This document shows, piece after piece, positions 79 to 45,523 of a stretch of DNA of 64,000 nt. Location: NCBI RefSeq assembly GCF_045037415.1, contig NZ_CP173438.1; one strand, given 5' to 3'. This DNA is from Escherichia coli (GTDB taxonomy: Bacteria > Pseudomonadota > Gammaproteobacteria > Enterobacterales > Enterobacteriaceae). Numbering within the stretch: position 1 is the stretch's first letter; the number at the start of each line of letters is the position of its first letter. The notes under the pieces were generated by a model. It ran no database searches and was not told the origin of the DNA. It saw only the letters and a program-made list of their open reading frames with translations. The position numbers were made by a program, and so were the translations under genes.

Positions 79-2511
79 TTACAACAACTGCGCCAGTCGG
101 TTAATATCCGACTGAATCGCCCCGGCGGTGACGTCGCGCCCTGCACCTGGCCCGCGGATCACCAGCGGGTTGTCGCGATACCAGCGGCTTTCGATGGCAA
201 AGACGTTATCGCATGGCAGTAGTGATGCCAGCGGATGGTCTTCACGCACCGCTTCCACGCCCACACGCGCTTTGCCATTGGCATCGAAACGCGCCACGTA
301 GCGCAGCACCAGCCCCATTTCGCGGGCCGCTTCCAGTCGTTGCACCATCTGCTCGTTAAGTTCATCGCCATTTTCAAAGAAATGGTCGATGCTGCCGCCT
401 TCGCAATGGGCAGGCACCAGTGATTCAACACGTACCTGGTCCGGTTCAATGTTGTAACCCGCTTCACGCGCCAGAATCACCAGCTTGCGCATTACGTCTT
501 TGCCGGAAAGGTCATCACGCGGGTCAGGTTCGGTTAAGCCTTGCTGCCACGCCTGATCCACCAGTTCGGTAAACGGCACGCTACCGTCGAATTGCAGGAA
601 CAGCCAGGAGAGCGTGCCGGAGAAGATCCCACTGATCGACAAAATGGTATCGCCGCTGTCGATCAGATCGCGCACGGTATGGTTGATCGGCAAACCCGCA
701 CCGACGGTGGCGTTGTACAGCCAGTGACGCCCGGTTTTTTCGAAGGCGTCGTGGATCTGGCGATATTTATTGCTGTCGCTTGCTCCTGCCAGTTTGTTGG
801 CACTGATGACGTGGAAACCGTGGCTGGCGAAATCAAGATACTGGTCAGCGAGCTGCTGGCTGGCGGTAACGTCCAGCACCACTAAATCATCATACGGATG
901 GGCGCGCATCCACAGGAACAGCGACTCTTCATCCTGCTCGACCGCTTCATCGTTGAAGAAGGCTAACGCGCGGCTGGCGTCCAGACCGTCATAGCTCAAC
1001 AGGCTACGGCGGCTGTCCACCACGCCTGCCAGCACAAATTCAAAGCCGGTACGTGCCGAAAGCGTACTCTGCTCACGGGCGAACAGTTCCAGCCAGCGGG
1101 AACCGATATTGCCCTTGCCGAACAATACCAGGCCGATGCGTTTTTCCGCGCGGAAGACGGACTGATGCAGCCCCTGAATCAGGCTTTCGGTCGGGCCGGT
1201 GCGCAGTACTGCCACCAGGCTGATGCCGTCATCGGACTGCCAGGTAAATTCGACCGGCTGGCCTTTCAGTTGCTGCCAGAAGCGGTGGCAATGCAGCGGG
1301 TTACGGGTGACGCCCGCCCCAACCATCGCCACCAGCGCCAGCCCCTGACGCAGGCGCAGTTCGCCAGGTAATCCCGCTTCGTCGAGGATTTTCAGCGCAC
1401 TGTCGGCCACTTCTGAGGTGTAGCAAAATTGCAGCAACTGGCGATCGTTATGCACGCCAACCGCCAGTGGACGTACCTGAGCACGTTTCAGGATCTGGTC
1501 GATCTCTTTATGCGCCAGTTTGAAATCCTGGCTGGCGGGCACCTGAAACTCAATCAAGCAGACATCATCATGGCTGGTGACAATACGCGCACCAGTACCG
1601 GAGGCCAGCACGCGTTCAATGCGCGTGGAACCTTGATCCGGCGTGTAGCTACAGCGCAGTTGCAGGTCGATTTCGCTGCCAGAAACGGGCTGTAAAGTAC
1701 GGGCATGAAGAACGGGAGCCGCCAGACGCGCCAGTTCGCTGGCTTCATCCAGACGCAGCAACGGCAGCAGGCAGGCATCTTTCACTTTACGCGGGTCGGC
1801 GCTATATACCCCGGCGACGTCGCTCCAGATGGTTACGCGAGAAACACCCGCCAGCGCACCGATTTGTGTCGCGGAATAGTCGGAACCGTTACGCCCCAGC
1901 AGCACCGTTTCACCGGCGTTGTTACGGCTGATAAACCCGGTCACCACCAGACGTTTGCCCGGATGTTGTACCAGTAGCTGTTGCAGCAACGGGTAAGAAA
2001 GCCCTTCATCAACCTGCGGTTGCGCAGCGCGTTCAGCGCGTAAAAACTCGCGGGCATCAAGCCAGGCCGATGGCAGCCCTTGTTGATTAAGCACCGCAGA
2101 CATCAGGCGCGCCGACCACACTTCACCGTGGCCCACCACTTCCGCATACACCGCATCGTTAATACCGCTGTCGAGCAACGCCGCCAGGCGCTCAAGATCG
2201 CTGACAAAAGCGCTAATGAGGTTATCGGCTTCTTCGGCGGGTAGCAGGCCGCTAATCAGATCGCACTGATAACGACGTAATGTTTGTTGAACCTGATGCG
2301 CAGAGAGACGATCGGTCTGGCTTAGTTTCAACCAGTTAATCAACTGGTTAGTGGTGCTACCGGCGGCGGAAACCACCATCATATCGTCAGGCTGAGAGTA
2401 CTCCGCCATAATGCCCGCGACACGCAAATAACACTTCACATCAGCCAGACTACTGCCACCAAATTTATGCAGTTGACGACCTTTCGCCCCTGCCTGCGCA
2501 ATCACACTCAT
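79..2511 (-). CDS. metL: bifunctional aspartokinase II / homoserine dehydrogenase II
   Basis: 810-aa ORF with N-terminal aspartokinase and C-terminal homoserine dehydrogenase regions; starts 2 nt after the metB stop, as in the metBL operon. Confidence 0.93.
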   Translation of the reverse strand: MSVIAQAGAKGRQLHKFGGSSLADVKCYLRVAGIMAEYSQPDDMMVVSAAGSTTNQLINWLKLSQTDRLSAHQVQQTLRRYQCDLISGLLPAEEADNLISAFVSDLERLAALLDSGINDAVYAEVVGHGEVWSARLMSAVLNQQGLPSAWLDAREFLRAERAAQPQVDEGLSYPLLQQLLVQHPGKRLVVTGFISRNNAGETVLLGRNGSDYSATQIGALAGVSRVTIWSDVAGVYSADPRKVKDACLLPLLRLDEASELARLAAPVLHARTLQPVSGSEIDLQLRCSYTPDQGSTRIERVLASGTGARIVTSHDDVCLIEFQVPASQDFKLAHKEIDQILKRAQVRPLAVGVHNDRQLLQFCYTSEVADSALKILDEAGLPGELRLRQGLALVAMVGAGVTRNPLHCHRFWQQLKGQPVEFTWQSDDGISLVAVLRTGPTESLIQGLHQSVFRAEKRIGLVLFGKGNIGSRWLELFAREQSTLSARTGFEFVLAGVVDSRRSLLSYDGLDASRALAFFNDEAVEQDEESLFLWMRAHPYDDLVVLDVTASQQLADQYLDFASHGFHVISANKLAGASDSNKYRQIHDAFEKTGRHWLYNATVGAGLPINHTVRDLIDSGDTILSISGIFSGTLSWLFLQFDGSVPFTELVDQAWQQGLTEPDPRDDLSGKDVMRKLVILAREAGYNIEPDQVRVESLVPAHCEGGSIDHFFENGDELNEQMVQRLEAAREMGLVLRYVARFDANGKARVGVEAVREDHPLASLLPCDNVFAIESRWYRDNPLVIRGPGAGRDVTAGAIQSDINRLAQLL

Positions 2512-2513
2512 TT

Positions 2514-3674
2514 TTACCCCTTGTTTGCAGCCCGGAAGCCATTTTCCAGGTCGGCAATTAAATCTTCGCCATCTTCAATACCGGTGGAGATACGCAGCAG
2601 CGTCTCGGAGATCCCGGCGGCAGCACGCGCTTCTGGTGCCATGCCTGCATGTGTCATGGTTGCGGCGTGAGAGATTAAACTTTCCACTCCCCCTAATGAT
2701 TCCGCCAGCGTAAACAACGACAGCCCGCCCAGGAAACGACGCAGCGTCTGCTCATCGCCATCCAGTTCAAAACTCAACATTGCGCCAAAGCCTTTTTGCT
2801 GGCGCGCGGCAATTTCATGCCCCTGATTTTCCGGCAGCGACGGGTGATACAGTTTCTTCACCAACGGCTGGGTTTGCAGATATTTCACAATCGCCTGCGC
2901 GTTGCGCTGCGCCAGCTCCATACGCGGCACCAGCGTTCGCAACCCGCGCAGCAGCAGATAGCTGTCAAACGCGCCGCCCGTCACGCCAATATTGTTTGCC
3001 CACCAGGCAAGTTCAGTGACAACGTCCGGGTCTTTAGCAATCACTACGCCTGCCACCACGTCAGAGTGACCGTTCAGATATTTCGTGCATGAATGCAACA
3101 CCAGATCGGCACCTAATGCCAGTGGATTTTGTAATGCCGGGCTTAAGAAGGTGTTATCCACCACGCTCACCGCCCCGACTTCCCTTGCCAGATGGCAAAT
3201 TTTCGCAATATCCACGACGCGTAACAATGGATTACTTGGGCTTTCTACCAGTACCAGTTTGGGTTTTTCTGCCAGCGCTGCCCGTAATGCCTGTTCATCG
3301 CTTTGATCAACAAACAACACGCGATAGCAACCGCGTTTCGCCAGGCTGTCGAACAGGCGATAGCTACCGCCGTAGCAGTCGTGCGGCGCAACCAGCAGAT
3401 CGCCAGGTTTCAAAAAGACGGTCGTTACCAGGTGAATCGCGGACATGCCGGTATTAGTAAGTACGGCACCGGCACCGCCTTCCAGTTCTGCCAGCGCACG
3501 CTGAACCACATCGCGCGTTGGGTTGCCGCGACGCGAGTAATCATGCGCACGTGGTTCATTAAATCCGGTAAAGTTATAGGTACTGGAAAGATGGATGGGA
3601 GGGACAACGCAACCATACTGTTCGTCGTCATTTAACCCGCTACGCACTGCGATGGTGGCCTGTTTACGCGTCAT
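2514..3674 (-). CDS. metB: cystathionine gamma-synthase (PLP-dependent)
   Basis: ORF track gives 445 aa from 3851; the internal start MTRKQATIAVRSG at 3674 gives the expected 386 aa and leaves the operator region free. Confidence 0.92.
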   Translation of the reverse strand: MTRKQATIAVRSGLNDDEQYGCVVPPIHLSSTYNFTGFNEPRAHDYSRRGNPTRDVVQRALAELEGGAGAVLTNTGMSAIHLVTTVFLKPGDLLVAPHDCYGGSYRLFDSLAKRGCYRVLFVDQSDEQALRAALAEKPKLVLVESPSNPLLRVVDIAKICHLAREVGAVSVVDNTFLSPALQNPLALGADLVLHSCTKYLNGHSDVVAGVVIAKDPDVVTELAWWANNIGVTGGAFDSYLLLRGLRTLVPRMELAQRNAQAIVKYLQTQPLVKKLYHPSLPENQGHEIAARQQKGFGAMLSFELDGDEQTLRRFLGGLSLFTLAESLGGVESLISHAATMTHAGMAPEARAAAGISETLLRISTGIEDGEDLIADLENGFRAANKG

Positions 3675-3737
3675 GTGATGAAGTTCCCTGGGCTTTGTCG
3701 GTGAAATGTCAGGCACCAGAGTAAACATTGTGTTAAT

Positions 3738-3769
3738 GGACGTCAATACATCTGGACATCTAAACTTCT
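3738..3769. promoter_or_regulatory. four tandem 8-bp Met-box-like repeats (MetJ operator) in the metB-metJ divergent promoter region
   Basis: GGACGTCA ATACATCT GGACATCT AAACTTCT, each 6/8 to the AGACGTCT Met-box consensus, about 65-95 bp upstream of the metB start. Confidence 0.5.
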
Positions 3770-3950
3770 TTGCGTATAGATTGAGCAAATCCCAAATAGC
3801 CGTTAAAATTATATGCATTATCACGCCGACAGGTGCATTACACGATGTCACGGTAACGCCTGTACGGTAAACTATGCGGGTTTACGGTCAGTACCCACAT
3901 TAACTGTGTGGTCTGGTCTCAATTTATTGACGAAGAGGATTAAGTATCTC

Positions 3951-4268
3951 ATGGCTGAATGGAGCGGCGAATATATCAGCCCATACGCTGAGCACGGCAA
4001 GAAGAGTGAACAAGTCAAAAAGATTACGGTTTCCATTCCTCTTAAGGTGTTAAAAATCCTCACCGATGAACGCACGCGTCGTCAGGTGAACAACCTGCGT
4101 CACGCTACCAACAGCGAGCTGCTGTGCGAAGCGTTTCTGCATGCCTTTACCGGGCAACCTTTGCCGGATGATGCCGATCTGCGTAAAGAGCGCAGCGACG
4201 AAATTCCGGAGGCGGCAAAAGAGATCATGCGTGAGATGGGGATTAACCCGGAGACGTGGGAATACTAA
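3951..4268 (+). CDS. metJ: methionine repressor MetJ
   Basis: ORF track starts at 3813; the internal ATG at 3951 ([18 protein letters not shown]) gives the 105-aa MetJ. Confidence 0.93.
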
Positions 4269-4279
4269 AGCGGAAAAGA

Positions 4280-4308
4280 GCGGCGCGGAGTTAACCAGCC
4301 GCTTTTTT
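4280..4308 (+). terminator. rho-independent terminator downstream of metJ
   Basis: GCGGC / GCCGC stem followed by TTTTTT. Confidence 0.5.
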
Positions 4309-4327
4309 CATACATGGACGTTTAACG

Positions 4328-4936
4328 ATGAAAATCAGGCTACTGATCCCCGGCCTGCTGGTTTCTGTGCCTGCATTTGCCTGGCAACCACAAACCGGCG
4401 ACATCATCTTTCAGATCTCTCGCTCATCGCAAAGTAAAGCGATCCAACTGGCGACCCATTCCGATTACAGCCACACCGGTATGCTGGTGATACGCAACAA
4501 AAAGCCCTACGTCTTTGAAGCCGTCGGCCCGGTAAAATATACCCCGCTGAAACAGTGGATCGCCCACGGTGAAGATAGCAAGTACATCGTGCGTCGCGTT
4601 AAAGGCGAGCTAAATGCCGAACAACAGCAAAAACTGGCGCAAACGGCAAAACGTTATCTCGGTAAACCGTATGACTCCAGCTTCTCGTGGAGCGACGATC
4701 GCCAGTACTGTTCGGAAGTGGTGTGGAAGGTCTACCAGAATGCGCTGGGAATGCGTGTGGGCGAGCAGCAGAAGCTGAAAGAGTTCGATCTTAGTAACCC
4801 GCTAGTTCAGGCAAAGCTCAAAGAACGCTACGGCAAAAATATTCCGCTTGAGGAAACGGTAGTTTCACCACAAGCCGTTTTCGACGCGCCACAACTCACC
4901 ACGGTCGCCAAAGAATGGCCGCTGTTTTCCTGGTAA
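4328..4936 (+). CDS. yiiX: YiiX-like putative secreted hydrolase
   Basis: 202-aa ORF with N-terminal signal peptide (MKIRLLIPGLLVSVPAFA); sits between metJ and rpmE as yiiX does in K-12. Confidence 0.8.
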   Translation: MKIRLLIPGLLVSVPAFAWQPQTGDIIFQISRSSQSKAIQLATHSDYSHTGMLVIRNKKPYVFEAVGPVKYTPLKQWIAHGEDSKYIVRRVKGELNAEQQQKLAQTAKRYLGKPYDSSFSWSDDRQYCSEVVWKVYQNALGMRVGEQQKLKEFDLSNPLVQAKLKERYGKNIPLEETVVSPQAVFDAPQLTTVAKEWPLFSW

Positions 4937-4955
4937 TACGACCAAAATTCAGGCA

Positions 4956-4985
4956 CAAAAAAAGCGCCGTGCGGCGCTTTTTTCG
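4956..4985. terminator. bidirectional terminator between convergent yiiX and rpmE
   Basis: AGCGCCG / CGGCGCT inverted repeat flanked by an A-tract on one side and a T-tract on the other. Confidence 0.55.
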
Positions 4986-4996
4986 GAAATCCGGTC

Positions 4997-5248
<252 letters not shown>

Positions 5249-5252
5249 CTAA

Positions 5253-7610
<2,358 letters not shown>

Positions 7611-11872: not shown

Positions 11873-12799
11873 ATGACTGAACAACAAATTAGCCGAACTC
11901 AGGCGTGGCTGGAAAGTTTACGACCTAAAACCCTCCCCCTCGCCTTTGCTGCAATTATCGTCGGGACGGCGCTGGCATGGTGGCAAGGTCACTTCGATCC
12001 ACTGGTCGCCCTGCTGGCATTGATTACCGCCGGGCTATTACAGATCCTTTCTAACCTCGCCAATGATTACGGCGATGCGGTAAAAGGCAGCGATAAACCT
12101 GACCGCATTGGGCCGCTACGCGGCATGCAAAAAGGGGTCATTACCCAGCAAGAGATGAAACGGGCGCTCATTATTACCGTCGTGCTCATCTGTCTCTCCG
12201 GGCTGGCACTGGTTGCAGTGGCGTGCCATACGCTGGCCGATTTTGTCGGTTTCCTGATTCTTGGCGGGTTGTCGATCATTGCCGCTATCACCTACACCGT
12301 GGGCAATCGTCCTTATGGTTATATCGGTTTGGGTGATATTTCCGTACTGGTTTTCTTTGGCTGGTTGAGCGTCATGGGGAGCTGGTATTTACAGGCTCAT
12401 ACATTGATTCCGGCACTGATCCTTCCGGCAACCGCATGCGGCCTGCTGGCAACGGCAGTACTGAACATTAATAACCTGCGTGATATCAATAGCGACCGCG
12501 AAAACGGCAAAAACACGCTGGTGGTGCGCTTAGGTGCAGTAAACGCGCGTCGTTATCATGCCTGCCTGCTGATGGGCTCACTGGTGTGTCTAGCGCTGTT
12601 TAATCTCTTTTCGCTGCATAGCCTGTGGGGCTGGCTGTTCCTGCTGGCGGCACCGTTGCTGGTGAAGCAAGCTCGTTATGTGATGCGCGAAATGGACCCG
12701 GTGGCGATGCGACCAATGCTGGAACGCACTGTCAAAGGAGCGTTACTGACTAACCTGCTGTTTGTTTTAGGGATATTCCTAAGCCAGTGGGCAGCATAA
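11873..12799 (+). CDS. menA: 1,4-dihydroxy-2-naphthoate octaprenyltransferase
   Basis: polytopic UbiA-family membrane protein; ORF track begins at a TTG at 11861, I prefer the ATG at 11873 (MTEQQISRTQAWLESL). Confidence 0.88.
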   Translation: MTEQQISRTQAWLESLRPKTLPLAFAAIIVGTALAWWQGHFDPLVALLALITAGLLQILSNLANDYGDAVKGSDKPDRIGPLRGMQKGVITQQEMKRALIITVVLICLSGLALVAVACHTLADFVGFLILGGLSIIAAITYTVGNRPYGYIGLGDISVLVFFGWLSVMGSWYLQAHTLIPALILPATACGLLATAVLNINNLRDINSDRENGKNTLVVRLGAVNARRYHACLLMGSLVCLALFNLFSLHSLWGWLFLLAAPLLVKQARYVMREMDPVAMRPMLERTVKGALLTNLLFVLGIFLSQWAA

Positions 12800-39055: not shown

Positions 39056-40450
39056 TCAGAAGAAGTATTTAAAGCGAACGCGTGCGCCGTAACGGTCATC
39101 ACTATCGTCGCCGTGTATCTTATCGCCGTCGCTATCCAGAATGGAGTAATACGTGCCGAGGTAAATATTAAAGTTCTCCATATCCATCACATTAGCGAAC
39201 TGATAAGACGCATGAATGGTGTGAATGTTGTATGTTCCTTCATCATCAATCCAGCAATCGTTATCACAAACCACGCCACTAAATTCATCAATCTTATTAT
39301 GTGCGTAGATATAACCCAGCTCGAAACGTTTCCACAGCGCGTTAATCCCAGCGGTGAAATCTTTCTCATTATTAGCATCTAAATAGGCGGTATTAAGATT
39401 AACCACGATGCCATTTTCCGGATCGGTTTTCAGGCCATTCCAGGTCATGCTCATGCCATAACCGGTACGATCGGACTGATCGACAAAATTACCCTTGCTA
39501 TCGGTATAACCATAAGCATTATTTACCACGTTCGCTTCCATCGCTGCGGAAACGGTGAATTCTTCCGTCGGCGACCAGGCAATTACCGGACGCAGATAAG
39601 CAACATTTTTCTGCTGTTCCATATCGCGTCCATGATAATTACCGTCGTTATATAAAGATGTTCCGTCTTCCAGTAACGTGTTTAATTCAAAATACCAGTT
39701 ATCGAGTTGTTTGCTGACGAGGAAATTACCGCCAGCGTTAGAACGCCCGCGGCCCTCTTTCATCATATAGATATAACCGCTGCCATCGTCATAAAGATCG
39801 TTCGCAGTATTACCGGAATGTTCAACAAAGGTATCCTGATTCAGCGGGAACATATCGTAGGCTTCAAAACGGCCTACTTTGACCTTCCAGTCGTTTTCTT
39901 TGCCAAAGAAGAAAACCGCATCATCGATATTTACTGAACCGTGCATATCCCCCAGCGGTTGTGCGGAGAACCCAGCGAAATAGCCATTATCCAGTTTTCG
40001 CATACCATCAAAACCTAACAGAATACGACCATTGAGATTCCACTGTTCATTAGTGGGATCGCTATTCACATCAGCGTTGGTCATTGCCAGCAGGCCATGA
40101 TTACTTTCCGCATCCATATTAAATTCTACGTCACCGTAGATTTTTAAATCGCCATACCCTGAAAGCAGGAGATTAGGCGGGGTGGCGTTTTTCTTCTCTG
40201 ACTCCGTCGTTGATTGACCGTTTACCGGCGTGTTGCCCTGTGCGGTTTTAATTTCGCGGATCTCGGCGGCTTGTTGTGTCTGAAGCTGTTTAACCTGCCC
40301 CTCTGCTTTTGCTGCCCGCATTTCTGCCGCTTCCAGGCGTTCTTCCAGCAATGCCATGCGTTGTTCCAGCGTTAAATGCTGTGTTTTTGCCATACCGGTA
40401 CTACATGCCAATAATAAACCGATGGCTAAAGATAATGTCGATTTTTTCAT
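39056..40450 (-). CDS. putative outer-membrane sugar-porin-like protein with N-terminal coiled-coil
   Basis: 464 aa; signal peptide MKKSTLSLAIGLLLACSTGMA, about 50 aa of heptad-like Ala/Glu/Gln-rich sequence, then an aromatic-rich region ending in the C-terminal FKYFF typical of beta-barrel OMPs; AGGGAA Shine-Dalgarno 8 nt upstream; family assignment is from memory of ScrY/RafY-type glycoporins and is uncertain. Confidence 0.65.
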   Translation of the reverse strand: MKKSTLSLAIGLLLACSTGMAKTQHLTLEQRMALLEERLEAAEMRAAKAEGQVKQLQTQQAAEIREIKTAQGNTPVNGQSTTESEKKNATPPNLLLSGYGDLKIYGDVEFNMDAESNHGLLAMTNADVNSDPTNEQWNLNGRILLGFDGMRKLDNGYFAGFSAQPLGDMHGSVNIDDAVFFFGKENDWKVKVGRFEAYDMFPLNQDTFVEHSGNTANDLYDDGSGYIYMMKEGRGRSNAGGNFLVSKQLDNWYFELNTLLEDGTSLYNDGNYHGRDMEQQKNVAYLRPVIAWSPTEEFTVSAAMEANVVNNAYGYTDSKGNFVDQSDRTGYGMSMTWNGLKTDPENGIVVNLNTAYLDANNEKDFTAGINALWKRFELGYIYAHNKIDEFSGVVCDNDCWIDDEGTYNIHTIHASYQFANVMDMENFNIYLGTYYSILDSDGDKIHGDDSDDRYGARVRFKYFF

Positions 40451-40803
40451 TATTTACGTTCCCTGAAATAAAGGAGACCCTACGCTTTCCAAAAGGAATA
40501 CGTATATAGAGAAATATAAGGTGTGCACTTTCGAATTTTTAATCCAACTTCAGCAGGCCGATGGATAGTATCCCGCCATATAATATGAGTAAATCCGCTG
40601 ATTTCCTGGAACGTGAGGAATATAACAATAGTGCCGTTTTTAACTAAATATCGTAAAAAATATTAGATATGATTCACGCTGACTCATAAGCCACAAATAT
40701 AAATAACGCTTAAACAAATTATCTGAGATATTTTAACATTCACAAAATCATTAAATAATGATACTTTATTCACAAAATTTATCCTTCACTCTGCTTTATA
40801 TTG

Positions 40804-41349
40804 TTACGACTTCGTGACATATCCGTGCTCATCACAAACCCGCCCCGCGATTACAATTAACTGAAATATTTCATCGACCATTTCGTTGTAATCGCATAAC
40901 GCTCGTGGAAATGAGTCTTCGGCCATCCAGCTTGAGTTTGCGTCCTGAAGTTGCTCTTTATCCCAGTCAGAGTACGGGACTTTATCTCTGATGCGGCGAA
41001 CGTATTTTTTAGCCTCGAGTTGATACTGGCCTGCCGAATTAATAAACGAGAAATTCATGCCGCTTTTATCCGCTTCTTTGGCTTGCGCCACCAGCGTTTC
41101 CAGTTCAGACACTTTCTTCATTGCCGCTTCTGCATCAAACTTATCTTGCGATATCAGGTTATTAATTTGTTTCGCTGAAATCATGACTGCCAGAGAGTAG
41201 TAGTGGAATGTTTTCCCTTTCGCAAACGCATCGTCTTTATAATTTTCCTGGGTGTAATATTTATCCATTTCGTTAATGGTATTACCCAACGCTACGGCAG
41301 CATCAATATAACTCACCGCCACGCCATCAATAGGTTGCAGCGCAGGCAT
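40804..41349 (-). CDS. hypothetical helical protein (K-12 yiiG position; homology unverified)
   Basis: 184-aa ORF from a GTG at 41358, or 181 aa from the ATG at 41349; no signal peptide; begins just after a hairpin downstream of fdhD. Confidence 0.45.
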   Translation of the reverse strand: MPALQPIDGVAVSYIDAAVALGNTINEMDKYYTQENYKDDAFAKGKTFHYYSLAVMISAKQINNLISQDKFDAEAAMKKVSELETLVAQAKEADKSGMNFSFINSAGQYQLEAKKYVRRIRDKVPYSDWDKEQLQDANSSWMAEDSFPRALCDYNEMVDEIFQLIVIAGRVCDEHGYVTKS

Positions 41350-41402
41350 TAACGCCACTACACGCGTTTTGTTTATAAAAAAATAACAAAATTCACGAAA
41401 TG

Positions 41403-41441
41403 AATAAGTCCTGTAATTTAATATATATCGCAGGACTTATT
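41403..41441 (-). terminator. long inverted repeat downstream of fdhD
   Basis: AATAAGTCCTG - 17 nt - CAGGACTTATT, followed on the minus strand by a T-rich stretch. Confidence 0.45.
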
Positions 41442-41445
41442 TTAA

Positions 41446-42279
41446 TTAATTGCTCAAACGCTGCGGATGGGTATAAACCGTCGCCCGACCCGGTTTACAA
41501 AAGCCCACCAGCGTCAGATTACAGCGCTCAGCCACTTCTACAGCAAGTGTGGTCGCGGCAGACACCGCAAACAAAATCTCTACGCCGCACATCGCCGACT
41601 TTTGCACCATTTCATAACTGGCACGGCTGGAAACCAGCACCGCACCTTGCTGCCAGCTTTCCCCTTCTTGTGATCGGCGGCCTAACAGTTTGTCCAGCGC
41701 CACATGGCGACCCACGTCTTCATGCCCGCCGACCAGTTCGCCAGATGGCAACATCCATGCAGCGGCGTGAGTACAACCAGTCAGTTGCCCCACTGGCTGG
41801 AAATCATTGAGATGACGTAATGCATCATCCAGTTTGTTGAGATCAAACGTCTGGGTGAACGGCAGCGGCTGCACCGGTTTACCGATATCGTTAAGCTGTT
41901 CTACACCGCATACGCCACAGCCCGTACGTCCCGCCAGCGCCCGGCGACGTTCCTTCAACCCCATAAAGCGGCGGCTGGAAAGCTCAATTTGTACTTCCAG
42001 GCCATTACAGGAAGGAACGACATCCATGCCGAAGATATCGCGCGGGCTTTCGATAATTCCTTCGGAAAGCGAAAAACCGAGCGCAAAGTACTCAAGGTCT
42101 TTGGGCGACGCCATCATCACCACGTGCGAAATGCCGTTGTAGACCAGCGCAACGGGAACTTCTTCCGCCACCTCATCTAACCGTGGGTGTTGTAAATCAT
42201 CACGCCGCCATAACTCAATTTGACGAACACCTGTGATATTTGTCACATTCTCGATTTCTTTTTGCTGTGTTTTTTTCAC
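41446..42279 (-). CDS. fdhD: formate dehydrogenase sulfurtransferase/accessory protein FdhD
   Basis: 277-aa ORF divergent from fdoG. Confidence 0.92.
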
Positions 42280-42472: not shown

Positions 42473-45400
42473 ATGCAGGTCAGCAGAAGGCAGTTCTTTA
42501 AGATCTGCGCTGGCGGTATGGCAGGCACCACGGCAGCGGCACTGGGTTTTGCACCCAGCGTAGCACTCGCGGAAACCCGGCAGTATAAACTGCTGCGCAC
42601 CCGCGAAACCCGTAATACCTGCACCTATTGTTCCGTAGGCTGTGGGCTGTTGATGTACAGCCTCGGTGACGGAGCAAAAAACGCCAAAGCATCTATCTTC
42701 CATATCGAAGGTGACCCGGATCACCCGGTCAACCGCGGAGCACTTTGTCCGAAAGGCGCTGGCCTGGTGGATTTCATCCACTCCGAAAGCCGTCTGAAGT
42801 TTCCGGAATACCGTGCGCCAGGTTCTGATAAATGGCAGCAAATCAGTTGGGAAGAGGCGTTTGATCGCATCGCCAAACTGATGAAAGAAGACCGCGATGC
42901 AAACTACATTGCGCAAAACGCCGAAGGCGTGACTGTTAACCGCTGGCTCTCCACCGGGATGCTGTGTGCTTCCGCGTCGAGCAACGAAACCGGCTATTTA
43001 ACGCAAAAATTCTCCCGCGCGCTGGGTATGCTCGCGGTCGACAACCAGGCGCGTGTCTGACACGGACCAACGGTAGCAAGTCTTGCTCCAACATTTGGTC
43101 GCGGTGCGATGACCAACCACTGGGTCGACATCAAGAATGCCAACCTCGTCGTGGTGATGGGCGGTAACGCCGCTGAAGCTCACCCGGTCGGGTTCCGCTG
43201 GGCGATGGAAGCCAAAATTCACAACGGCGCGAAGCTGATTGTGATCGATCCTCGCTTTACGCGTACAGCGGCGGTGGCTGACTACTATGCCCCTATCCGT
43301 TCCGGTACTGACATTGCTTTCCTGTCAGGCGTATTGCTGTACCTGCTGAACAATGAAAAATTCAACCGCGAATACACCGAAGCCTATACCAACGCTAGCC
43401 TGATCGTGCGTGAGGATTACGGCTTTGAAGATGGCCTGTTCACCGGCTACGACGCGGAAAAACGCAAGTACGATAAGTCCACCTGGACTTACGAACTGGA
43501 CGAAAACGGCTTCGCCAAACGCGATACTACCCTGCAACATCCACGTTGCGTGTGGAACTTGCTGAAACAGCACGTTTCCCGCTACACGCCAGATGTGGTT
43601 GAAAACATCTGCGGTACGCCAAAAGACGCATTCCTGAAAGTCTGCGAATACATCGCAGAGACCAGTGCTCACGATAAAACTGCCTCGTTCCTTTACGCCC
43701 TCGGCTGGACGCAACACTCCATCGGTGCGCAGAACATCCGTACGATGGCGATGATCCAGTTGCTGCTCGGCAATATGGGGATGGCTGGCGGCGGCGTTAA
43801 CGCCCTGCGCGGTCACTCCAATATTCAGGGGCTGACGGACCTGGGGCTGCTGTCGCAGAGTCTGCCAGGTTACATGACGCTGCCAAGCGAGAAGCAGACC
43901 GATCTGCAAACTTACCTTACCGCCAACACGCCGAAACCACTGCTGGAAGGCCAGGTTAACTACTGGGGCAACTACCCGAAATTCTTCGTCTCTATGATGA
44001 AGGCCTTCTTTGGTGATAAAGCGACGGCGGAAAATAGCTGGGGCTTTGACTGGTTGCCGAAGTGGGATAAAGGCTACGACGTCCTGCAATACTTCGAGAT
44101 GATGAAAGAGGGCAAGGTCAATGGCTATATCTGCCAGGGCTTTAACCCTGTTGCCTCATTCCCGAACAAAAACAAAGTGATCGGCTGTCTGTCGAAGCTG
44201 AAATTCCTCGTGACTATCGACCCGCTGAACACTGAAACCTCTAACTTCTGGCAGAACCACGGTGAACTGAACGAAGTTGACTCGTCGAAGATCCAGACCG
44301 AAGTGTTCCGTCTGCCATCGACCTGCTTCGCGGAAGAGAACGGTTCAATCGTTAACTCTGGTCGCTGGTTGCAGTGGCACTGGAAAGGTGCGGACGCCCC
44401 GGGGATTGCGCTGACTGATGGCGAGATCCTCTCCGGTATCTTCCTGCGCTTGCGCAAGATGTATGCCGAACAGGGTGGCGCGAACCCGGACCAGGTGCTG
44501 AACATGACCTGGAACTACGCCATCCCGCATGAGCCGAAGTCGGAAGAAGTGGCGATGGAGAGCAACGGTAAGGCGCTGGCCGATATTACCGATCCGGCAA
44601 CCGGTGCGGTTATTGTCAAGAAAGGCCAACAACTTAGCTCGTTCGCTCAACTGCGCGATGACGGTACAACCTCCTGTGGCTGCTGGATTTTCGCCGGTAG
44701 CTGGACGCCAGAAGGCAACCAGATGGCGCGTCGTGATAACGCCGATCCGTCTGGCCTCGGTAACACGCTGGGCTGGGCATGGGCATGGCCGCTTAACCGC
44801 CGCATTCTGTATAACCGCGCCTCCGCAGATCCGCAGGGTAACCCGTGGGATCCGAAGCGTCAGTTGCTGAAATGGGACGGCACTAAGTGGACCGGCTGGG
44901 ATATTCCGGACTACAGCGCAGCGCCTCCGGGCAGTGGCGTCGGGCCGTTTATCATGCAGCAGGAAGGCATGGGGCGTCTGTTTGCCCTCGATAAGATGGC
45001 GGAAGGTCCGTTCCCGGAACACTACGAGCCGTTTGAAACGCCGCTGGGAACTAACCCGCTGCATCCAAACGTTATCTCGAATCCGGCGGCGCGTATCTTT
45101 AAAGACGATGCCGAAGCATTGGGGAAAGCCGATAAGTTCCCGTATGTCGGAACCACCTATCGTCTGACCGAGCACTTCCACTACTGGACCAAACACGCGC
45201 TGTTGAACGCGATTTTGCAACCAGAGCAGTTTGTGGAAATCGGGGAGTCGCTGGCGAATAAACTTGGCATTGCCCAGGGCGATACTGTGAAAGTCTCCTC
45301 CAACCGTGGCTATATCAAAGCCAAAGCGGTAGTGACCAAACGTATTCGCACGCTGAAAGCAAACGGCAAAGATATCGATACCATCGGTATTCCGATTCAC

Positions 45401-45523
45401 TGGGGCTATGAAGGTGTTGCGAAAAAAGGCTTTATTGCCAATACGTTGACGCCATTCGTCGGTGATGCGAACACGCAGACGCCGGAGTTTAAGTCCTTCC
45501 TTGTGAATGTGGAAAAGGTGTAA
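42473..45523 (+). CDS. fdoG: formate dehydrogenase-O major subunit (selenocysteine-containing)
   Basis: ORFs 42473-43060 and 43109-45523 are in the same frame, separated only by TGA at 43058-43060, read as Sec; combined 1016 aa; Tat motif RRQFFK; N-terminal 4Fe-4S Cys cluster. Confidence 0.92.
43061..43110 (+). other. putative SECIS stem-loop directing Sec insertion at the fdoG UGA
   Basis: immediately 3' of the in-frame TGA; contains AGCAAG-T-CTTGCT inverted repeat. Confidence 0.5.

Follow-up and report, generated by a model that had tools for sequence, protein, structure and literature searches.

Stepwise decay of yiiG downstream of fdhD in Escherichia coli: a short open reading frame that is very probably a pseudogene

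In Escherichia coli K-12, the fdhD gene is followed by yiiG (b3896), which encodes a predicted lipoprotein of the YiiG family (DUF3829) whose function is uncharacterised. In the 64,000-nt stretch of the E. coli contig NZ_CP173438.1 analysed here (the window), a shorter open reading frame (ORF) lies in this place, raising the question of whether it is a genuinely short gene or a truncated or rearranged remnant, perhaps one that was created when the adjacent porin region was acquired. The original prediction, made from the nucleotide sequence, had entertained both readings. Its description of the ORF, with a length of 184 or 181 aa depending on whether GTG 41358 or ATG 41349 is taken as the start, no signal peptide, and no obvious Shine-Dalgarno sequence, holds in all these respects. 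Synteny with K-12 and other strains also agrees with its placement in the yiiG position, the orthologous place downstream of fdhD. The features of the locus are listed in Table 1.

Table 1. Features of the fdhD-porin region, in window coordinates
Feature	Coordinates	Strand	Description and evidence
RafY-type carbohydrate porin gene	39056..40450	minus	464 aa; Pfam Porin_8, E 8e-155
Residual divergent control region, porin / former frvA	40451..40803	.	carries an extra 38-bp deletion
yiiG remnant ORF (pseudogene)	41358..40804	minus	184 codons from GTG, 555 bp; ORF list, Pfam, BLASTP, PGAP
Tail of the remnant ORF	40804..40869	minus	IFQLIVIAGRVCDEHGYVTKS + stop; read from the strand opposite the sequence once upstream of frvA, not YiiG
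~4.8-kb 3' deletion junction	40870..40874	minus	microhomology ATGA(A); BLAST against frv-retaining loci, junction sequences
135-bp in-frame internal deletion junction	41210..41219	minus	10-bp direct repeat AAGGGAAAAC; YiiG 189-233 lost
First ATG in the remnant ORF	41349..41347	minus	181 aa from here; sequence and allele alignment
478-bp 5' deletion junction	41351..41358	minus	8-bp direct repeat GTGGCGTT; alignments with K-12 and other alleles
Retained proximal fdhD-yiiG spacer	41359..41402	minus	colinear with K-12
Hairpin	41403..41441	minus	arms 41403-41413 / 41431-41441 (AATAAGTCCTG / CAGGACTTATT), 11-bp stem, 17-nt loop
fdhD, intact upstream neighbour	41446..42279 (stop codon 41446-41448)	minus	Pfam FdhD-NarQ, E 9.6e-72; RefSeq

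The relationship of the ORF to yiiG was assessed by profile search and by alignment with the full-length protein. The ORF matched the Pfam family PF12889 (DUF3829) with an E-value of 1.6e-48 and a score of 166 bits (cut-off 26.8), but the match was split over two stretches, and the better of these spanned only profile positions 158-282 rather than the complete domain (about 1-285). By comparison, K-12 YiiG (351 aa) covers profile positions 2-285 with its residues 73-349. In the BLASTP comparison with K-12 YiiG, residues 1-50 of the ORF correspond to YiiG 139-188 and residues 51 to 162/163 to YiiG 234 to 345/346, leaving a gap of 45 residues (YiiG 189-233), and the last 21-22 residues of the ORF (about 163-184) have no YiiG counterpart. 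Of the 163 aligned residues, 156 are identical, and the nucleotide identity across the retained segments is 96.6-97.3%. Approximately 162 of the 277 residues of the DUF3829 domain are kept (~58%); the missing 42% include the first 66 residues and 45 internal ones. The alignment with full-length YiiG/DUF3829 homologues that had been suggested as a check, performed here with the 351-aa K-12 protein, thus reveals a gene that is both truncated and internally deleted. Intact yiiG genes encoding 351 aa were found in K-12, XDL, and 06-00048.

Public annotation points the same way. The locus of strain SK1144 is 100% identical to the window across the 1,050 bp tested (40451-41500), and RefSeq/PGAP lists the 555-bp SK1144 gene DAECLI1_RS23550 as a pseudogene ([quoted passage not shown]); the remnants of EcPF14 and N12 received a pseudogene call as well. 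The remnant part of the original prediction is therefore borne out by the two-fragment domain match, the BLASTP correspondences, and the PGAP calls. The SK1144 entry is identical to the remnant in sequence and coordinates. It records only the missing N-terminus and says nothing of the 135-bp internal deletion, of the chimeric tail at the 3' end, or of the link to the frv deletion.

Comparison with K-12 and other alleles resolved the differences from intact yiiG into three deletions. The 5' deletion removed 478 bp between two copies of GTGGCGTT, one located in the fdhD-yiiG spacer and the other at yiiG codons 139-141. The junction was fixed by direct string comparison; MAFFT misplaced the retained spacer across the 478-bp gap. 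Lost with this segment were 56 bp upstream of yiiG, which contain the AAGG ribosome-binding site, the ATG, and codons 1-138, encoding the leader MKRNLLSSAIIVAIMSLGLTGC with its lipobox (LTGC), the linker, and the start of the domain. The first codon of the remnant occupies the position of YiiG residue 139, and the ORF accordingly lacks a signal peptide with a lipobox Cys (...LGLTGC in K-12), the leader falling within the deletion.

A literature search for functional studies of yiiG or DUF3829 found none, only two items that mention yiiG. One of these reports a MarA ChIP peak inside yiiG of the enterotoxigenic strain ETEC H10407, with the motif GCGCGTTATGCTGAC (PMC5684230). In K-12, this motif (minus strand, ~7560-7580 of the extracted locus) falls within the 478-bp segment absent here, and the site is lost from all 1,460 genomes that carry this deletion.

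Both apparent starts of the remnant can be traced to changes at this junction or next to it. GTG 41358 is formed by the first three bases of the surviving GTGGCGTT repeat (window 41358-41351), and an in-frame TAA lies 6 codons 5' of it, in the retained spacer. In the allele alignment, ATG 41349 is a lineage-specific C-to-T change that converted ACG (Thr142) to ATG; 8 of the 10 remnant-bearing sequences aligned have ACG at this place, including EcPF14 and N12, which carry all three deletions. Shine-Dalgarno-like pairing is absent before either codon, with calculated anti-SD duplex energies of +0.6 kcal/mol (GTG) and -1.5 kcal/mol (ATG), compared with -3.8 kcal/mol for the native K-12 yiiG start. 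Consensus promoter and terminator scans of the window gave nothing above the shuffle background, with no promoter-like match upstream of the remnant ORF; the same scans of the K-12 yiiG upstream region likewise yielded nothing above that background. Unlike K-12 yiiG, the remnant has neither the original ribosome-binding site nor the original start codon, and presumably not the original promoter. As judged from these alignments, both apparent starts are accidental, the GTG being supplied by the deletion repeat and the ATG by a private SNP.

Between the AAGGGAAAAC repeats, the internal deletion took out a segment in which the closest undeleted relatives have an A6 run with a -1 frameshift. The 3' deletion, of ~4.8 kb, has one end at yiiG codon 345/346 and the other ~15 bp upstream of the frvA ATG; it eliminated the last six yiiG codons, the yiiG-frvR spacer, and frvR, frvX, frvB, and frvA. 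Window 40871-40773 matches positions 12053-12151 of the ST131-2822 locus and 12004-12104 of the XDL locus, directly upstream of frvA. In contrast to K-12 YiiG, the encoded product would thus lack residues 189-233 and the last six residues and would end in a foreign 22-residue tail. The long ORF survives because the retained pieces all happen to be in frame and no frameshift occurred in this sublineage; the 135-bp deletion, having removed the segment with the -1 frameshift, may be the reason why the frame is open again in the window. The extra 38-bp deletion in the adjoining control region (window ~40773-40782) lies between ATAAATT-type direct repeats and represents a fourth small slippage-type event within 700 bp. 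It is common to every frv-deleted allele examined and is not seen in frv-retaining genomes.

The distribution of the three junctions was determined in 5,426 complete E. coli genomes using short probes of 44-46 nt, with no more than 27 nt on each side of the junction, that is, below the 28-nt seed, so that intact alleles cannot seed. Probes of 100 bp were discarded because the search joins pieces up to ~550 bp apart and intact alleles would therefore score full. The 478-bp 5' junction was detected in 1,460 genomes, the frv-deletion junction in 1,161, and the 135-bp junction in 691. Individual genomes exemplify each state. XDL and ST131-2822 combine intact yiiG with frvRXBA and the porin gene. 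ETEC4068 has a 5' junction identical to that of the window but retains the 135-bp segment, the native C-terminus, the frv operon, and the porin gene. GPEC505, MS1494, E04, JNE, AHB6, PK8275, and WP7-S17 carry the 5' and frv deletions and keep the 135-bp segment; alleles of the GPEC505 and E04 types share both junctions with the window exactly but are frameshifted. All three deletions are present in the window, SK1144, EcPF14, and N12.

These counts, together with the few genomes examined rather than a full phylogeny, suggest that the 478-bp deletion came first, followed by the loss of frv and then by the 135-bp deletion; the 5' truncation was separate from the frv loss, is the more widespread of the two, and probably preceded it. 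The ancestral layout would have been fdhD - hairpin - yiiG - frvR frvX frvB frvA - porin - rhaM. In the proposed first step, the 478-bp deletion between the GTGGCGTT repeats would have been enough alone to inactivate yiiG. In the second, the ~4.8-kb deletion at the ATGA(A) microhomologies would have taken away the frv operon, so that the frame now runs on for 22 codons into what had been the frvA upstream region. The third would have been the in-frame 135-bp deletion between the AAGGGAAAAC repeats. Given that all three deletions occurred at short direct repeats, they point to replication slippage or illegitimate recombination rather than to a mobile element, and we infer slippage as the mechanism.

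Strain 06-00048 carries an independent and different frv deletion (locus 6335-6846), with frvR and frvA fragments beside intact yiiG and the porin gene; therefore, frv has been lost more than once. Junctions of the yiiG remnant were also found in two plasmid-labelled records, which are probably mislabelled or misassembled chromosomal replicons.

The original prediction had noted an inverted repeat that looked like the fdhD terminator, with the ORF starting just after it. The 11-bp stem after fdhD is present, but the ORF does not follow directly: the hairpin starts 4 nt past the fdhD stop, and the remnant begins 44 nt beyond the hairpin. The 5' deletion spared the hairpin, as it set in 44 nt further downstream. 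In K-12, both the hairpin and the 44-nt spacer belong to the ordinary, conserved sequence of the fdhD-yiiG intergenic region; the hairpin is a pre-existing, conserved element of this spacer that was not made by the rearrangement. The predicted RNA fold of the window hairpin has an energy of -13.9 kcal/mol (z = -2.8 versus shuffles), compared with -18.4 kcal/mol in K-12, -22.1 kcal/mol in ST131, and -23.1 kcal/mol in XDL (z <= -5 for each of the three). The window hairpin is the weakest of the four, owing to a change at 41414 that leaves a C/A mismatch in place of the 12th pair, which is C-G in K-12; in XDL, the stem is kept through a compensatory G-C to U-A double change. The G+C-rich core GUCCUG/CAGGAC is followed by the U-rich UUAUUCAUUU, a tract that is partly paired in the predicted fold. 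The consensus terminator scan did not call this hairpin, whose 17-nt loop is above the scan's loop limit of 8, and an Rfam scan of 40400-41600 at E <= 1 gave no match. By its sequence and predicted fold, the hairpin is plausibly an intrinsic terminator of fdhD.

In XDL and ST131-2822, a two-gene insertion (XDL locus 1821-5964, ST131-2822 locus 1812-5955; matching site in the window at about 41442-41466) separates the fdhD stop from the hairpin and yiiG, and the stem-loop therefore travels with the yiiG side. Its two genes code for a GHKL/Hsp90-like ATPase of 611 aa and for a protein of 768 aa with a weak TPR match, and ~12 bp of the fdhD 3' end are repeated at both of its borders. PADLOC reported only weak TmtA-like matches (E 5.5e-06) for these genes, which could constitute a small defence-type island. 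The intact yiiG of ST131-2822 (locus 6175-7218) is very divergent, with 81-88% nucleotide identity to other E. coli alleles, a pS of about 0.43, and a pN/pS of about 0.26; fdhD next to it shares 99.7% identity with the window copy. This pattern suggests a foreign allele imported by recombination, perhaps with the neighbouring insertion. The best match to a chimeric yiiG query reached only 80-90% identity in 147 genomes. On the other side of fdhD, the gene for the large formate dehydrogenase subunit (window 42473-45523, plus strand) appears as two ORFs (42473-43060 and 43109-45523). The gene contains an in-frame TGA selenocysteine codon, and RefSeq has a single 3,051-bp CDS across it; the split is expected and is not a lesion.

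The alleles that share the 5' junction differ by sublineage in their further lesions, which include a -1 frameshift, a +1 frameshift, a 3-bp insertion, and the 135-bp deletion. In GPEC505 and MS1494, the -1 frameshift in the A6 run leads to a stop at codon 65. E04, JNE, AHB6, and PK8275 have a +1 insertion near codon 334, to which E04 adds the 3-bp insertion. Changes private to the remnants comprise 10 non-synonymous and 6 synonymous substitutions (n = 16, a small sample from alleles that are recombination mosaics). This 10:6 ratio is compatible with neutrality (P = 0.13) and fits poorly with omega = 0.15 (P = 0.018), omega = 0.25 being compatible too. Pairwise pN/pS between divergent remnants is 0.15-0.26, as low as between intact alleles. 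However, 18 sites variable among remnants carry the same variants in intact genes, and we attribute the low values to recombination with intact alleles; the remnants being mosaics of variants shared with intact genes, pairwise dN/dS among them is uninformative.

Could the remnant have originated in one step, with a foreign porin segment taking the place of frv and cutting into yiiG? The original prediction had named the acquisition of the porin region as a possible cause. Of frv and the porin gene, K-12 has only the former at this locus and the window only the latter, and the 3' end of the ORF departs from K-12 exactly at the rearrangement boundary, both in keeping with such a replacement. Yet the porin gene coexists with frv beside intact yiiG in XDL and ST131-2822 and beside 5'-truncated yiiG in ETEC4068; because it adjoins frv in genomes with intact yiiG, its presence is unrelated to the truncation. 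Past the 3' boundary comes the native frvA upstream region, which identifies the event as a deletion of frv, not an insertion. The 5' junction outnumbers the frv junction by about 300 genomes and is therefore independent of the frv event. Moreover, the porin gene is found in 2,556 of the 5,426 genomes (47%), including O157:H7, at 95-100% identity. It is a resident gene of the locus, with a spread typical of vertical inheritance at phylogroup-level divergence. The probability that we assign to a one-step porin replacement is almost negligible, the lowest among the readings considered here. The neighbouring rearrangement is a loss of frvRXBA, not a gain of the porin gene, and explains no more of the remnant than its 3' end.

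A genuinely short functional gene, encoding a cytoplasmic DUF3829 fragment with a new role from GTG 41358 or ATG 41349, would find some support in the uninterrupted 184-codon frame shared by the window, SK1144, EcPF14, and N12, in the occurrence of the 135-bp junction in 691 genomes, in the removal of the frameshift-bearing segment by an in-frame deletion, and in the low pairwise pN/pS among remnants. However, neither a ribosome-binding site nor a promoter-like site precedes the frame, the ATG is a private SNP missing even from other alleles with all three deletions, 42% of the domain is gone, alleles with the same 5' end contain two different frameshifts, and the recently derived changes are mostly non-synonymous. 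Same-size copies in other genomes, of the kind that would speak for a short gene, do exist, but all of them share identical junctions and therefore represent one allele, not independent homologues. We thus regard a short functional gene as highly improbable. Even more so, to the point of being barely credible, is the elaborated form of this idea, in which the 135-bp deletion re-opened a frameshifted remnant and transcripts from fdhD that read through the weakened hairpin would allow expression of the leaderless, signal-less 181-184-aa DUF3829 fragment, with a new role in the cytoplasm as the reason for its retention in ~13% of sequenced E. coli. A non-coding role, with the stretch serving as a spacer or terminator between convergent units (fdhD and the orphaned antisense frv promoter region) and the ORF being incidental, is very unlikely as well, if the least improbable of the alternatives. 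The former frvA upstream region now adjoins the remnant in antisense orientation, and the A-rich and U-rich flanks of the hairpin could terminate transcription in both directions. Against this role, the sole plus-strand promoter-like match (40733-40762, 9/12) is no better than shuffled sequence, Rfam has no match, the hairpin is weakened in the window lineage, and the successive deletions indicate a stretch that is being lost, not conserved.

The porin gene decays independently: it is interrupted by an IS1 insertion in GN05652, frameshifted in EcPF14, and reduced to a 77-bp stub in HS30-1. In K-12, the corresponding site, from which the porin gene is absent, is at locus 1915-2216.

We conclude with high confidence that the ORF downstream of fdhD is a non-functional pseudogene of yiiG, an uncharacterised DUF3829 lipoprotein gene. 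The disabling lesion is present: the 478-bp deletion took the start codon, the ribosome-binding site, and essential coding sequence, and the remnant is presumably not expressed. What is seen here is ordinary gene decay rather than a new short gene, and the locus already carries the pseudogene label in public annotation.

A false “orphan gene” is thereby removed from consideration, with little at stake for new biology in what is a routine case of stepwise decay, and the direction of the neighbouring rearrangement is corrected, frv having been lost and the porin gene not gained. About 27% of complete E. coli genomes share a single deletion by which yiiG, an uncharacterised lipoprotein gene, has been naturally inactivated. 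Mutations in the yiiG promoter and start codon were among those of antibiotic-selected mutants in a laboratory screen (PMC11742677), and these natural null alleles are therefore possible ready-made material for studying YiiG function.
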